Shown here piece after piece: positions 1 through 30,079 of a stretch of DNA of 64,000 bases. The stretch lies in NCBI GenBank assembly GCA_900544555.1, contig UQWD01000008.1:14021-78020 (forward strand). Direction: 5' to 3'. Below the pieces are notes generated by a model that was not told where the DNA came from, made no database searches, and saw only the letters and a list, made by a program, of their open reading frames with translations. The translations under genes and the position numbers were made by a program. Every line of letters begins with the position of its first letter. Positions within the stretch are counted from its first letter, which is position 1. The DNA comes from an uncultured Eubacteriales bacterium. Lineage in GTDB: Bacteria; Bacillota; Clostridia; Christensenellales; CAG-138.

Positions 1-939
1 AAGAACGCGGGGAAAACGACAGCGCTCAACCGACTGATTGAGGAGCACCGGTATAATGAAGGCGTTTTGGCGCTCACGTCCATCGGCAGGGACGGGGAAA
101 ATGTGGATATTGTTACGCACACAAACAAACCGGGCATTTTTATTTATGAAAACACGCTTATCGCCACCGCTCAGGGGCTTTTGAGGTATTGCGACGCTAC
201 GCGCGAGATACTCGAAACTACTGGAATGAACACGCCCCTGGGCGAAGTCGTCATCCTGCGCGCTCTGAGCGACGGCAGCGTGCAAATAGCGGGGCCGTCC
301 ATGACGGAACAGCTAAAGCGGGCGGCCGATATGTTTTTTACACTGGGCGCGGACCGCGTGATTATCGACGGGGCGGTGAGCCGCAAATCGCTTTGCGCGC
401 CCGCCGTGGCGGACGGTACTATTTTATGCACCGGCGCTTCCTACAGCAAAAGCATGATTGCGGTCGCGGAGGATACTGCGTTTGCCGCCGAGCTTTTAAC
501 GCTTCAACATACGGCGTTCGATTTAGGCTTTGAGACTCCGGCGCGTATAACCGTGACGACGGAGGATGGAGAATATATCCCGCTTACACAAAACGATACC
601 CTGCCTGAAATTATGAAGAAGCTCCCTGGCGTATCGGGCGTATGGCTTCGCGGGGCGCTCACGGAATCCTCGCTCGCCGCGCTTTTGCGCGCGGGCGTGT
701 CTATGGAAGGGGTTGAAATCATCGTTGAGGACGCGTCCAAGCTATTAATAACGAAGGAAACGTACCGAAAGCTTAGAGCGCGCGGAGGCCGTATCCGCGT
801 GAGGGAAAGCGCCTCCCTATGCGCCGTGACCGTCAACCCGTTTTCAGCCTACGGCTATCATTTTGATAAGGATGCGTTTATAGATGTTATGCGAAAGAGC
901 GTACAGGTTCCGGTAATAAACGTGATGGAGGAGCTATGA
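1..939 (+). CDS. Uncharacterised protein, C-terminal part (N-terminus upstream of window); translationally coupled to the MutS-like ATPase gene
   Basis: The frame is open from nt 1 (KNAGKTTALNRLIEE..., a possible Walker-A-like GKT at the window edge) to TGA at 937-939. The stop overlaps the next ATG (ATGA). No family recognised from sequence. Confidence 0.5.
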   Translation, partial: KNAGKTTALNRLIEEHRYNEGVLALTSIGRDGENVDIVTHTNKPGIFIYENTLIATAQGLLRYCDATREILETTGMNTPLGEVVILRALSDGSVQIAGPSMTEQLKRAADMFFTLGADRVIIDGAVSRKSLCAPAVADGTILCTGASYSKSMIAVAEDTAFAAELLTLQHTAFDLGFETPARITVTTEDGEYIPLTQNDTLPEIMKKLPGVSGVWLRGALTESSLAALLRAGVSMEGVEIIVEDASKLLITKETYRKLRARGGRIRVRESASLCAVTVNPFSAYGYHFDKDAFIDVMRKSVQVPVINVMEEL

Positions 940-2393
940 TTAAAATTGGTCACAGGCAGCGCGAAACGACGGGGTTTGATTTTATACTCGGAAAGCTTTC
1001 AGCCAATTCCCCGTACGGGAATGAAAGGATCCGGCGTATTCGCTTTTATTCCCCGCATGAGAAGCACGAGTTGGAGGAAGAGCTTTATAACGTAGGGCGC
1101 GCGGCTGATACGCTGGAAAGCTGCGCGCGAGAGTACGCGGCTGTCGAGCGGCAGATGATGGCGCTCAAGGACGTTAGAAGATCCATCGAACGATGCAGGG
1201 AGGGTGAGCTAGACGAGGTTGAGCTTTTTGAGATAAAGAGGTTCCTTCTTCAGCTCGAGATTATGGCGGAAGCGTATCGCCTCGTTCAGGAGCGCGCGGG
1301 ATTTGCCGGGATAAACATTGAACCCGTCCCGGGGGCGCTGCGCGCGCTTGATCCGGACGGGCGGCGTACGGCTTCCTTCTACGTGAGCGACGCGAAGCTG
1401 CCTCGCCTTCGCGAGATAAGAAGAAGAAAGCGCGAGCTGGAAGAGAAGATGCGCCTCGAGAGGGACGGCGCGCGGCGTGAAAAGCTTGCGCAGGAAAGGC
1501 TAACCGCGGCGGTTGAGGAAGAGGACGCGCAGAGGGAGGCGCTTTTTATGATGTGCGCCGACTTAAGGCCTTACCTTGACGATATAATGAACGCGGTGAA
1601 CGCCATTGGCAGGCTGGATTTTACCATATCGCGCGCAAAGCTGGCGGCGCGGTACGGGGCCTGCCTCCCAACTATGGATGGAGATAGACTGGCGCTTGAA
1701 CGGGCCGTACATCCGCTGTTTGTGGATGCGCTCAATAAAAAGGGCCGCGCTTTTACACCAATTTCAATCGAGATAGCGCCGGGCTCAACCGTTATTACGG
1801 GGGCGAATATGGGGGGGAAAAGCGTTGCGCTCAAAACCATCGCCGTTAACGCGCTGATGCTTCATGCGGGCATGTTCGTATTTGCTCAAAGCGCGAATAT
1901 CCCGCTGATGGAAGGCGTACACATCATATCGGAAGATTTAGAGAGCGCGCAGCGCGGCCTCTCCAGCTTCGGCGCGGAGATAATCCGGTTTAACCAGATA
2001 CTAGAACAGGTTGAGAGGGAAGCCGGCTCCCTTATTTTGCTGGATGAGTTCGCGCGCGGTACTAACCCGCACGAGGGCGCGCAGATAGCCGGCGCGGTTA
2101 CGCGTTATCTGAATAATCTGCCTGCCCTGAGCGTAATGACCACGCATTTCGACGGCGTTGCGGACAATGCCGGCGCGCACTATCAGGTTATCGGCCTGCG
2201 GGATATGGATTTGGCTGAGGCGGCCGCGCGGATATCTAAAGCGGAGCGCAGGGAGGAGGTCATCTCCCGCTATATGAATTACGGCCTTTACCGCGTAGCC
2301 GGCGAAAAAAGCTGCCCGCGGGACGCCTTAAATATCTGCCGCCTGCTCGATTTTAAGCCGGAAATACTGAAGATGCTGGAAAATATATATTGA
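936..2393 (+). CDS. MutS-family ATPase (lever/clamp-like coiled coil plus domain V only; no mismatch-binding or connector domain)
   Basis: Walker A GANMGGKSVALKT; MutS-type Walker B LLDEFARGTNPHEG; SSFGAE signature; 485 aa; start overlaps the upstream stop. Confidence 0.8.
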   Translation: MIKIGHRQRETTGFDFILGKLSANSPYGNERIRRIRFYSPHEKHELEEELYNVGRAADTLESCAREYAAVERQMMALKDVRRSIERCREGELDEVELFEIKRFLLQLEIMAEAYRLVQERAGFAGINIEPVPGALRALDPDGRRTASFYVSDAKLPRLREIRRRKRELEEKMRLERDGARREKLAQERLTAAVEEEDAQREALFMMCADLRPYLDDIMNAVNAIGRLDFTISRAKLAARYGACLPTMDGDRLALERAVHPLFVDALNKKGRAFTPISIEIAPGSTVITGANMGGKSVALKTIAVNALMLHAGMFVFAQSANIPLMEGVHIISEDLESAQRGLSSFGAEIIRFNQILEQVEREAGSLILLDEFARGTNPHEGAQIAGAVTRYLNNLPALSVMTTHFDGVADNAGAHYQVIGLRDMDLAEAAARISKAERREEVISRYMNYGLYRVAGEKSCPRDALNICRLLDFKPEILKMLENIY

Positions 2394-2418
2394 CAATAAT
2401 AAGACGGTAACTTATAAT
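2390..2418 (+). promoter_or_regulatory. Sigma-A type promoter, TTGACA-17 nt-TATAAT (the -35 overlaps the MutS-like stop codon)
   Basis: Exact consensus hexamers with a 17-nt spacer, seen directly; predicted TSS near 2425, just upstream of the riboswitch. Confidence 0.6.
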
Positions 2419-2451
2419 GAAACATGGTGAGATTGATAATTTTATATCGTT

Positions 2452-2712
2452 TTCTAGATAGAGGCGCGGGAAGCTTGGTAGCCGCCGGATGCAAAGGATA
2501 TGAGCGTCCAAGGGCGGCGGCGAATGGGCTTGCCGCCGAAAGCGGGCGGGCCGCTCACGCCCTCCGAGCTTGGGTACGGCGCTGAGCGCGCCGTAACTGT
2601 CATCGGTATGATGATGCGCTATTGACAGCGGGTTACCCTGCGTCAATAGCGTTTTATTTAGTCTGATGAGGCGCTATCACCTGTTTATCAACGGGTTGAG
2701 AGCGCCTTTTTT
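2452..2712 (+). promoter_or_regulatory. Lysine riboswitch (L-box) with ON-type expression platform
   Basis: P1 5' strand GATAGAGGCGC (2456-2468) pairs with 3' strand GCGCTATC (2671-2678). Internal CCGCCGAAAG and ACTGTCA...TTGACAG elements are present. The outer terminator stem GGCGCT (2670-2675)/AGCGCC (2701-2706) plus a T6 run (2707-2712) shares its 5' half with the P1 3' strand. Confidence 0.75.
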
Positions 2713-2748
2713 ATCAATTGATTGAAAATAATGTTCAAGGAGGCAATC

Positions 2749-3141
2749 ATGAAATCTGTTATCCGAATGCGCATGGGCGCGAACGACGCTCATTACGGCG
2801 GCAATCTGGTGGACGGGGCGAAGATGCTCCAGCTTTTTGGCGACATCGCTACGGAGCTTCTCATTATGAACGACGGCGACGAGGGTTTATTTAAGGCTTA
2901 TGATATGGTGGAGTTTATGGCCCCCGTGTTTGCCGGGGATTATATTGAAGCGGCGGGCGAAATCGTTCACTGCGGCAATACCTCCCGAAAGATGGTGTTT
3001 GAGGCACGCAAGGTTATCGCGCCCAGGCCCGATATCAATGATACCGCGTGCGACGTGCTAAAGGATCCTATAATCGTTTGCCGCGCCTCCGGCACATGCG
3101 TAGTACCCGGGGATAAGCAGCGCGGGAAACAGACCGTTTAA
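2749..3141 (+). CDS. kal: 3-aminobutyryl-CoA ammonia-lyase (small hotdog-fold protein of the lysine pathway)
   Basis: 130 aa from the ATG at 2749, preceded by AAGGAGG; size and position in the kam/kdd/kce cluster. Confidence 0.65.
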
Positions 3142-5064: not shown

Positions 5065-5292
5065 TTAAATCACGTGATAAAGGGCTTTACCTTGAAATAC
5101 CGCAGGGGCTGTTATGGGGCGCGGAATAATGCGTCTGGTAACAGCCCCCGCGTATCGGCGCAAAACAAAGCCCCGCGTAAAAGACGCGCGTCCCCTATTA
5201 TCCATGCTTTTGGGTTGGGGCCGGCGCGTGGAGTATTATTCCGAGACCGTACTGCGTTTCGGATGACAGCGAATATATGAGGAGGAGAGCGT

Positions 5293-8927: not shown

Positions 8928-9010
8928 CGCGCCCGAGATTTAGGGTTTCCGCCTGTGTTAATTTCAGGGAGAGCGGTTTACGAAAAGCGTTAAAGCCGTT
9001 GTAAATTAGG

Positions 9011-9054
9011 GCTCTTTATCCGCAGCTTTTTTTCGGGCCCGGCGGATAAAGAGC
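9011..9054 (+). other. Perfect 13-bp inverted repeat (GCTCTTTATCCGC / GCGGATAAAGAGC) with a 18-nt T-rich loop, between kamE and crt
   Basis: Seen directly; no U-tract after the stem on the + strand, so it is not a canonical terminator. Confidence 0.5.
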
Positions 9055-9124
9055 TTGTATGGCAAGGCATTCCTATTGAACAGTACGGGCTGTTTTTTAC
9101 GGCGCGTTAGAAGGAGGCAGATAA

Positions 9125-10742: not shown

Positions 10743-11057
10743 GCGGCGGTATTTGGCGGATTATGACGGCTCTACCGAGCGATTCGTTTAAACGCGGGGC
10801 CGTAATCGCTATTGTCAGGCGGCCAAAAGAGCCGCCTGAGACTGCCTAACACCCTTTTTGTTTGGGGTATGGCGGGGTTCCCTGAAGGCTTTAATCGTTT
10901 GCGGACGTAAGGTTTTTAGTTATAATGGCTTTCCCCGCATGGGGCGTCGCAAGCGCAAACAACGCAAGCGCCCCGTGAGACTCTCAAAAAAGTAATATGG
11001 ACGCTTTTTTGATGACAGAGGCGGCCGGCGGCCGCCATAAACTGAGGAGGTTTTGTT

Positions 11058-13022: not shown

Positions 13023-14030
13023 ATGAGCGGAAGCATTCTAGTGTTTGCTGAACAGCGGGACGGGGAGCTGCAAAAGGTTTCGCTTGAGCTGATAGGAAAA
13101 GCCAGGGAGCTGGCTGCCGCGCGGGGCCTGAAGGTTATCGCCGCCTTGTTCGGACACGGCGTTTTGGATAAGGCCGCGGAACTCATCGCCTACGGCGCCG
13201 ACGAGGTGCTGGCGGCCGATCACCCGATTCTGTCCGAATATATGACCGAGCCCTACGCAAAGGCGATGACGGACGCGATTAAGGCGGCCGAGCCTGAAAT
13301 CGCGCTCTTTGGCGCGACCTCCATAGGCAGGGATCTGGCGCCGCGCGTGTCCGCCCGGATACATACCGGGCTGACGGCGGACTGCACCAGGCTGGAGATT
13401 GACGCGGATACGGGCTTGCTTTTAATGACGCGCCCGGCGTTTGGCGGAAACATCATGGCGACTATCGTCTGCGCGCAGCACCGGCCTCAGATGGCCACTG
13501 TACGCCCCGGCGTTATGAAAGCGCTTGAGAAGGATCCCGCGCGCGCCGGCGCGGTTACCCGGCTGGATACGGAATTTACGGAAGCGGACGCAAACGTGCG
13601 CATACGGCAGGTAGTACGGGGCGAAAAGAAGAGCGTTGACATAACCGGCGCGAAAATCCTGGTTTCCGGCGGGCGCGGGATAGGCAAGGCCGAAAATTTT
13701 GATATTCTCAGGAAGCTGGCGGACGCGCTCGGCGGGGAGGTTTCATCATCCCGCGCAAATGTGGACGCCGGCTGGGCTCAGCGAGACAGGCAGGTGGGGC
13801 AGACCGGGAAAACCGTACATCCCAAGCTTTATATCGCCTGCGGGATCTCCGGCGCGATACAGCATCTGGCGGGCATGGAGGAATCCGACTATATTATCGC
13901 GATAAACAAAAACAACACCGCCCCGATTTTCGATGTTGCGGATCTGGGCGTCGTGGGCGACTTAAACGTTATCGTTCCCAAGCTCACGGAGGCGATCCGG
14001 AAGTATAAATCGGATAAGGCCGTAAACTGA
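13023..14030 (+). CDS. etfA: Electron transfer flavoprotein alpha subunit
   Basis: 335 aa; FAD-binding C-terminal region. Confidence 0.85.
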   Translation: MSGSILVFAEQRDGELQKVSLELIGKARELAAARGLKVIAALFGHGVLDKAAELIAYGADEVLAADHPILSEYMTEPYAKAMTDAIKAAEPEIALFGATSIGRDLAPRVSARIHTGLTADCTRLEIDADTGLLLMTRPAFGGNIMATIVCAQHRPQMATVRPGVMKALEKDPARAGAVTRLDTEFTEADANVRIRQVVRGEKKSVDITGAKILVSGGRGIGKAENFDILRKLADALGGEVSSSRANVDAGWAQRDRQVGQTGKTVHPKLYIACGISGAIQHLAGMEESDYIIAINKNNTAPIFDVADLGVVGDLNVIVPKLTEAIRKYKSDKAVN

Positions 14031-24755: not shown

Positions 24756-24907
24756 GACGGTACCTCCCGAATGTAAACAATTATAGCATGGAGATGGCAA
24801 AACCGTCAAACCCTATTGACATGGCGGAGCGGGGGTTATATAATCCAAATAACATAGTATCCATAACTATGTTATAGAGATGGCAAAACTTGGCGAGAGG
24901 TAAAAAT

Positions 24908-29869: not shown

Positions 29870-30079
29870 CGCTTTTGAATGCCATCGAGCATACAGCCAA
29901 TTGCTATAACATAAACCGGTGTGGGAAAATCCACATCGGCTTATATCTACTTATCTCAGGCCGCCGTAATCGTTGGTTTTACAAAAATTCATATGATGAT
30001 ATAAAATGTTTAATTGAATCATATTGACAATCAAATGAATGCATAATATAATCAATATATACTAAGTTGGAAGGGAGCG

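Follow-up and report, generated by a model that had tools for sequence, protein, structure and literature searches.

Introduction

Lysine riboswitches acting as ON-switches ahead of kal and kce, two genes of lysine fermentation, were reportedly predicted by Rodionov in 2003. Riboswitches of this family (L-box, RF00168) located upstream of kal/kce in Clostridium sticklandii, Fusobacterium nucleatum and Thermoanaerobacter have been recorded as positive regulators (Mukherjee et al. 2017, PMC5584792), and passages of Barrick and Breaker 2007, citing Rodionov 2003, place lysine among the riboswitch classes with ON members that bury pieces of a terminator (PMC2258182). Here we describe the kal leader in a stretch of DNA of 64,000 nucleotides (the window throughout this text) from an uncultured Eubacteriales bacterium of the Christensenellales lineage CAG-138 (GenBank assembly GCA_900544555.1, contig UQWD01000008.1, positions 14,021 to 78,020 of the forward strand), where a single L-box aptamer is followed by two copies of its closing strand, each of them embedded in a terminator-like hairpin of its own. 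This leader has in common with the recorded kal/kce riboswitches the aptamer family, kal as the first gene, and a predicted ON logic based on a terminator that shares bases with the closing helix. Those riboswitches, however, were described for their gene association and logic, whereas the duplicated closing strand and the two terminators are features of the window.

In the lysC L-box of Bacillus subtilis, an antiterminator is interposed between helix P1 and the terminator. L-boxes of the lysC type follow an OFF logic, by which lysine causes termination (PMC11477304). The leader described here resembles lysC in its RF00168 fold, in its presumed ligand, lysine, and in the control of transcription termination, but it differs in serving catabolism instead of biosynthesis and in having no antiterminator: the 3' strand of P1 lies inside the terminator arm, and lysine should therefore antiterminate. 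The same principle is found in the ON riboswitches of pbuE (ydhL) and gcvT, which respond to adenine and glycine, respectively (PMC2258182). In these, too, the P1 that the ligand stabilises takes up part of a terminator stem, and the terminator is thermodynamically favoured, so that control must be kinetic (the corresponding differences in single-module kal leaders are +5 to +11 kcal/mol); they have another aptamer and ligand, however, with only one terminator and one closing strand.

Two further systems share the serial character of the leader. Passages of a review on tandem riboswitches count 14 double lysine riboswitches, each composed of two complete aptamers (PMC9481103). As in the window, two serial terminators under the control of one ligand should make the response sharper or tighter, but in the window there is one aptamer, and only its last ~15 nt are repeated together with the terminator. 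In trp-type attenuators, the leader can form the alternative hairpins 1:2, 2:3 and 3:4. The likeness lies in the chain of mutually exclusive hairpins, where occupation of the first strand decides the fate of the final terminator; the sensor of the trp-type attenuator is a translating ribosome, whereas here it would be a ligand-binding aptamer, and the second hairpin of the chain is also terminator-like.

The logic of the switch is not new. A first reading of the letters of this DNA (the original prediction) had implied that an L-box working in reverse was a novelty of the locus, but ON lysine riboswitches (PMC2258182) and their placement before kal/kce (PMC5584792) were already on record; its central idea is a rediscovery, right in logic and incomplete in anatomy. 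As for the anatomy, we did not find a single-aptamer, two-platform arrangement in the passages of the tandem-riboswitch review (PMC9481103), nor any mention of two terminators combined with a duplicated closing strand in a comparison that left out Rodionov 2003 and Serganov & Patel 2009. A literature search on lysine riboswitches combined with lysine fermentation or 3-aminobutyryl-CoA returned nothing relevant. The duplicated module is thus apparently, and provisionally, an undescribed variant of the expression platform.

An L-box aptamer with two copies of its closing strand

A scan with Infernal against Rfam, named in the original prediction as a check on its proposed L-box, returned RF00168 as the sole Rfam match in the window, covering the full model (182 positions) with a score well above the gathering value of 30 bits (Table 1). 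Mapping of the covariance model onto the sequence gave P1 and P5 of 5 bp each, together with P2 to P4; six model pairs are non-canonical. The conserved L-box junctions (AGAGG.GC on the 5' side and UG.AG.GCUA on the 3' side) are present as UAGAGGCGCG (2459-2468) and GAUGAUGCGCUAU (2610-2622). Judged by score and architecture, the element is a member of RF00168, and lysine would be its ligand. The K-turn is missing from some members of the lysine riboswitch family (PMC2258182). The whole leader folds with a z-score of -7.3 relative to shuffled sequences.

Downstream of the aptamer body, closing strand, hairpin and U-tract make up a module that occurs twice, at a distance of ~55 nt. In copy 1, the P1 3' strand at 2619-2623 lies within the 5' arm (2616-2627) of hairpin 1, whose stem reads CGCUAUUGAC-A-GCGGG/CCUGC-GUCAAUAGCG. 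Copy 2 can pair with the same 5' strands of the aptamer, in helices that we call P1b and P5b, and it is also the 5' arm of terminator 2, with the P1b strand (2674-2678) contained in the arm at 2670-2681. A third structure, hairpin 2, results from the pairing of copy 2 with X, the 3' arm of hairpin 1, and forms when the aptamer closed by copy 1 is locked. Hairpin 1 and terminator 2 both look like intrinsic terminators, in that a stable, G+C-rich hairpin directly precedes a U-tract, and for both copies the 5' arm of the terminator shares the P1 3' strand with no antiterminator in between, as in ON-type switches. A simple consensus terminator scan listed neither hairpin, probably because their bulged stems fall outside the rules of the scan.

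The terminator with arms GGCGCT and AGCGCC, followed by six T's, had been located correctly by the original prediction, but the single-terminator picture drawn from it was too simple, as the first P1-overlapping hairpin (2616-2652, followed by UUUUAUUU) had been overlooked. Moreover, GCGCTATC had been taken for the 3' strand of P1, a place that the covariance model assigns to 2619-2623. This string is a credible closing strand, with the score of an L-box 3' end, a capacity for pairing with the 5' strands of P1 and P5, and an overlap with terminator 2; it belongs, however, to the second copy. Since the repeat is limited to ~15 nt of the aptamer, the leader lacks the two complete aptamers that define a tandem riboswitch (PMC9481103).

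Table 1. Positions of the kal leader elements and of the adjoining genes in the window
Feature	Position	Strand	Details
kamB	67-939	+	lysine 5,6-aminomutase reactivase gene, upstream of the promoter; 5' end cut by the window
kamC	936-2393	+	lysine 5,6-aminomutase reactivase gene, upstream of the promoter; TGA stop 2391-2393
Sigma-70-type promoter	2390-2418	+	TTGACA 2390-2395, 17-nt spacer, TATAAT 2413-2418; 12/12 matches
Lysine riboswitch aptamer (L-box, RF00168)	2451-2629	+	71.3 bits, E 1.3e-16, model 1-182, full length
Helix P1	2457-2461/2619-2623		covariance model mapped onto the sequence
Helices P2 to P4	within 2466-2598		covariance model mapped onto the sequence
Helix P5	2600-2604/2610-2614		covariance model mapped onto the sequence
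Closing strand copy 1	2610-2624	+	GAUGAUGCGCUAUUG; P5 3' strand, J5/1, P1 3' strand
Hairpin 1 (terminator 1)	2616-2659	+	stem 2616-2652, dG -24.1 kcal/mol; tail UUUUAUUU 2652-2659
X arm and U-tract	2642-2658	+	3' arm of hairpin 1; alternative partner of copy 2
Hairpin 2	2646-2658/2665-2677		X paired with copy 2, 13 bp
Closing strand copy 2	2665-2679	+	GAUGAGGCGCUAUCA; contains GCGCTATC 2671-2678
Helix P1b	2457-2461/2674-2678		alternative pairing of copy 2
Helix P5b	2600-2604/2665-2669		alternative pairing of copy 2
Terminator 2	2668-2712	+	GGCGCUAUCACC...GGUUGAGAGCGCC 2670-2706 (GGCGCT 2670-2675, AGCGCC 2701-2706), extended 2668-2708; U6 2707-2712; dG -22.9 kcal/mol
Ribosome-binding site	2737-2743	+	AAGGAGG
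kal	2749-3141	+	3-aminobutyryl-CoA ammonia lyase, ATG at 2749; first operon gene

Leaders of related kal genes

We compared the leader with those of loci encoding close relatives of the kal protein (designated by L-numbers), 80 from species-representative genomes and 80 from metagenomes. Among the 77 genome loci with an upstream flank, on which the genome counts are based, RF00168 was found directly upstream of kal in 24; in the metagenome set, a hidden Markov model (HMM) built from the genome-locus aptamers detected an L-box before kal in 20 of 80. Copy 1, X, a U-tract, copy 2 and the last arm (the 3' arm of terminator 2) occur together in 12 distinct loci: the window, L081, L001, L002/L083, L003, L006, L014, L016, L041, L087, L091 and L017/L082/L142. 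For the most part, they hold the closest kal relatives, from organisms named as uncultured Clostridia or Oscillospiraceae.

The commonest kal leader is simpler, with a single terminator whose 5' arm consists of J5/1 and the P1 3' strand. In L019, for example, this terminator reads GCGCUAUUUAUGUC...GACAUAAAACAGGCGC and is followed by U6, and its direct overlap with P1 is as plain in L018, L021 and L007. This layout is the textbook ON design. Across the genome loci with an L-box, the first hairpin after the aptamer holds the P1 3' strand and carries a U-rich tail in 20 of 24. The proposal that P1 and the terminator exclude each other is thus supported by the relatives, even if the anatomy on which it had been based was incomplete. 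Because one terminator directly overlaps P1 in the simpler kal leaders, the ON logic is well supported comparatively, and for the kal leader as such we consider it highly probable.

If, on the contrary, the leader were a classical OFF switch, hairpin 1 would act as an antiterminator and lysine would bring about termination, as in the biosynthetic lysC L-boxes. Precedent speaks for this, inasmuch as a large majority of the characterised L-boxes are OFF switches (PMC11477304) and, in OFF L-boxes too, the P1 3' strand has a pairing partner further downstream. But hairpin 1 itself bears a U-tract, both hairpins with U-tracts go with an open P1 and not with a closed one, the downstream genes are catabolic, and the single-module relatives possess just a P1-overlapping terminator, all of which makes an OFF switch very improbable. 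The only candidate for an OFF-type terminator built from the 3' arm of hairpin 1, namely X paired with copy 2, is followed by CUGUUUAUC, with no U-tract, and was rejected.

Some leaders in the collection deviate from both layouts or add to them. A second complete lysine aptamer (70.5 bits) lies between kal and kce in the Lachnospiraceae-type locus L017 (3449-3625) and also in L082 (1970-2145), so that kal and kce are each preceded by an L-box of their own. L016 (2862-2905) is the only locus with the duplicated module that has no U-tract on the second hairpin, the tail being AUGAAAUCC; its second module may have decayed or may work differently. In the Clostridium-type leaders L009, L012, L060, L115 and L134, a clean terminator (GCACUGAAA...UUUCAGUGC plus U6) lies 30-60 nt past the hairpin containing P1. 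A relay of P1, two hairpins (H1 and H2) and the terminator was considered for L009, L012, L060 and L115 and was discarded, as the final terminator forms regardless of whether the P1 strand is blocked. Finally, the platform that follows the L-box in L049 (2896-3001) and L154, of Propionigenium or fusobacterial type, matches neither the single-terminator nor the duplicated-module pattern.

Conservation of the two copies

Eleven duplicated-module leaders were aligned with MAFFT and their expression platforms analyzed with RNAalifold. The conserved blocks were the P5 5' strand, copy 1, X with the first U's that follow it (UUU), and copy 2, while the spacers and the last arm were not conserved. The first U's after the hairpin 1 stem are invariant in the 11 loci, and a GCUAU:AUAGC core is universal among these leaders. 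RNAalifold recovered only P5 and hairpin 1, with seven consensus pairs changed on both sides. One of these seven, at position 5 of P1, switches from U-A (8 loci) to C-G (3 loci), in a three-way covariation of copy 1, X and the P1 5' strand. The arms of terminator 2 did not align in this analysis, and the support for terminator 2 comes locus by locus and not from alignment-wide covariation.

Both copies have the character of an L-box 3' end. A weight matrix for this element, trained on single-copy kal leaders only (2 of the 16 training rows were mis-anchored, which dilutes it slightly), placed copies 1 and 2 at ranks 1-2 of ~300 leader positions in 11 of the 12 loci, with copy 2 equalling or exceeding the score of copy 1 in 7. 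Pairing with the P5 5' strand is canonical at 59/66 positions for copy 1 and at 58/66 for copy 2, and the four core P1 pairs are possible for copy 2 in all 12 loci. At position 5, the fit to the P1 5' strand is found in 11/12 loci for copy 1 and in only 7/12 for copy 2.

These data can be held against a scheme in which the aptamer closes with copy 1 only and the rest of the leader is a four-strand, attenuator-like relay: P1 would exclude hairpin 1, hairpin 1 would exclude hairpin 2, and hairpin 2 would exclude terminator 2. Copy 2 would then never close the aptamer, and it would resemble copy 1 merely through the need to pair with X. That the covariance model picks copy 1 agrees with this. In most loci, however, copy 2 loses its complementarity to X right after CUAU and yet keeps the UG at -7/-6; the U at -7, in particular, is retained in 11/12 loci, though mostly unpaired in the registers of both hairpin 2 and terminator 2. 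Furthermore, the conservation of copy 2 spans the L-box core, from -9 to +3 (UG.NGCGCUAU), and not -3 to +7, the register of X pairing and hairpin 1, and copy 2 retains its pairing with P5. Because the conserved span is the L-box core and the U at -7 is kept while mostly unpaired, this pattern argues that copy 2 is maintained as a true aptamer-closing strand, beyond its role as a pairing partner.

The conservation of copy 1 is awkward for the converse scheme, which corresponds to the simple model of the original prediction. Here the aptamer closes with copy 2 only, the sole decision lies between P1b and terminator 2, and copy 1 with X makes up a long extension of P5 that is permanently formed and acts at best as a partial, constitutive attenuator. 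Such an extension would have no reason to be invariant in sequence in its outer part and to look like an L-box 3' end there, nor to match the P1 5' strand at position 5 as often as copy 1 does, with X co-varying. A strong hairpin 1 followed by invariant U's, moreover, would be expected to terminate constitutively.

Competition between alternative folds

We calculated state energies for the window on the transcript 2451-2712 with P2 to P4 held fixed; these, like all energies given here, are nearest-neighbour values without ligand or tertiary terms. With P1 open and both hairpin 1 and terminator 2 formed, the value was -110.7 kcal/mol. Closing the aptamer by copy 2 (P1b and P5b, with hairpin 1 nested in a long P5) gave -107.7 kcal/mol, while closing it by copy 1 gave -90.0 kcal/mol with hairpin 2 and -91.8 kcal/mol with terminator 2.

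In this respect, the scheme with copy 2 as the only closing strand fares well. The state that it calls for keeps hairpin 1 and lies just 3 kcal/mol above the terminator state, whereas the copy-1-closed states lie ~19-21 kcal/mol above. The cost of P1b relative to terminator 2, -3.6 to +8.6 kcal/mol in 8/11 duplicated-module loci, is at or below the range of P1 versus terminator in ordinary single-terminator kal leaders (+4.8 to +11.1 kcal/mol), a balance like that of ordinary ON switches; the competition between copy-1-closed P1 and hairpin 1 is more lopsided (+12 to +30 kcal/mol). Hairpin 1 (-16 to -30 kcal/mol) is also far stronger than the single-module terminators (-11 to -18 kcal/mol). 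Copy 1, however, emerges first and leaves a P5 loop of only 4-5 nt, so that it should be the first to close the aptamer, and when we folded growing transcripts without constraints, it did take up P1 in exact register in 8/12 loci as soon as it had been made. After copy 2 had been made, copy 1 had shifted to X in 12/12 loci and copy 2 was in the exact P1 register in 6/12. All in all, we consider closure by copy 2 alone unlikely.

Closure by copy 1 alone, followed by the relay, also finds some support in the folds. In the window, locking of the copy-1 aptamer lets hairpin 2 form as a stem of 13 bp, nearly isoenergetic with terminator 2, and with the copy-1 aptamer blocked, X paired with copy 2 in 8/12 loci before the last arm was made, a pairing that persisted afterwards in 3. 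On the other hand, hairpin 2 is worse than terminator 2 by 11-17 kcal/mol in L081, L001, L003 and L087, and this, together with the conservation of copy 2, makes the relay rather unlikely as a full account. Each of the two schemes fits part of the data, and each leaves the conservation of the other copy unexplained.

Proposed mechanism

From the aptamer, the promoter, the two hairpins, and the two conserved copies with the pairing capacities of each, we infer a course of events that includes lysine binding, termination at either of two sites, and a route protecting copy 2. Transcription would start near 2425, and the aptamer body (the P1 5' strand, P2 to P4 and the P5 5' strand) could be closed by either 3' strand. 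At the first checkpoint, copy 1 would emerge first; a P1 locked by lysine would withhold it from hairpin 1, and the polymerase would pass. Without lysine, the much stronger hairpin 1 would strip copy 1 off P1, and most transcripts would be terminated.

The second checkpoint would depend on copy 2, as the 5' arm of terminator 2, and there are two ways in which lysine might protect it. The freed X arm could pair with copy 2 to give hairpin 2 while the copy-1 aptamer is still locked. Alternatively, copy 2 could re-close the aptamer through P1b and P5b, with hairpin 1 formed and nested in a long P5 and lysine bound late. Without lysine, copy 2 would be free and terminator 2 would form. The net effect would be read-through into the lysine-to-butyrate operon when lysine is present and two terminators in series, hence a tight OFF state, when it is absent.

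We assign a probability of roughly 0.5 to this reading of the leader as a lysine-activated transcriptional riboswitch with a tandem expression platform, two checkpoints and two closing strands. More tentative, at somewhat less than even odds, is the fuller proposal that two interchangeable closing strands, each with its own terminator, serve one aptamer body in turn, so that it takes two sequential lysine-dependent decisions, with a second look after the first checkpoint, and that a clade of Clostridia/Oscillospiraceae-like lysine fermenters has kept this arrangement.

Several observations weigh against the two-checkpoint reading, beginning with the energies, which contain neither ligand nor tertiary terms. 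In L081, L001 and L087, the gap to terminator 2 exceeds 12 kcal/mol for both P1b and hairpin 2. In the window itself, the unconstrained folds have the copies paired with 2463-2464 in a slipped register and not in the exact P1. When the copy-1 aptamer was locked and synthesis was complete, the optimum was terminator 2 in 9/12 loci, and protection by hairpin 2 could therefore only be kinetic. The mismatches of copy 2 at position 5 limit P1b to 4 canonical pairs in 5/12 loci. U-tracts are poor on hairpin 1 of L014, L016 and L041, to which the second hairpin of L016 adds the complete lack of one. Among the relatives, the Clostridium-type terminator is part of the optimum fold with or without blocking of the P1 strand, and looks uncoupled from the aptamer.

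Genomic context of the leader

The consensus promoter claimed in the original prediction is exact in every position. The window contains three perfect TTGACA-17-TATAAT sites, compared with 0.27 expected, even allowing up to 1 mismatch, from a dinucleotide-preserving shuffle of the 64 kb. In 10/12 loci with the duplicated layout, a promoter with 11-12 of 12 matches is kept at the same place, just upstream of the aptamer. The hexamers, a spacing within 16-18 nt, and a position ahead of a regulated RNA are those of a sigma-70/SigA-type promoter, with a transcription start predicted near 2425. The other two perfect sites are located at 24816-24844 and 30024-30052, both on the + strand.

The stop codon of kamC sits within the -35 hexamer. 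Transcripts reading through from kamBC would therefore run into the riboswitch as well, which has no control over kamBC themselves. In L001, open reading frames (ORFs) match kamB and kamC in size, order and position, the only features on which this match is based.

The operon downstream of the riboswitch has the order kal-kce-kdd-kamA-kamD-kamE-crt-hbd-acyl-CoA dehydrogenase (bcd)-etfB-etfA and ends at 14030. Its lysine-pathway genes have NCBIfam equivalog matches above the cut-off, so the lysine-fermentation genes and the catabolic context that had been proposed from the letters are confirmed by gene family, and the operon is a complete lysine-to-butyrate route. Three gaps of ~200-315 nt each occur within the cluster, at 5065-5292 (kdd/kamA), 8928-9124 (kamE/crt) and 10743-11057 (hbd/acyl-CoA dehydrogenase); the Rfam scan found no family in any of them.

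Between the U6 of terminator 2 and the ribosome-binding site, there is a perfect 10-bp palindrome, ATCAATTGAT (2713-2722), which could be a protein site or a mere standby region. At the corresponding position, L001, L006 and L081 have A/T-rich stretches of the form ...AAAUCAAAUA...GGAGG.

Conclusions

To the lysine-ON switches already predicted, the locus mainly contributes a clear case in which the operon is complete from kal to etfA and the consensus promoter is conserved. Twelve distinct loci share the duplicated module in conserved form. If the module works as proposed, it would show that further decision points can be had in a riboswitch from a copy of only ~50 nt of expression platform, with no need to duplicate the whole aptamer. 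It would also be a natural test bed for the tight OFF state of kinetic ON switches. Natural lysine-ON switches also have a practical appeal, since those in need of such devices have had to build them (Zhou and Zeng 2015, listed in PMC5584792). For the organisms that carry the leader, what would be controlled in this way is the fermentation of lysine to butyrate, possibly a relevant trait of gut anaerobes.

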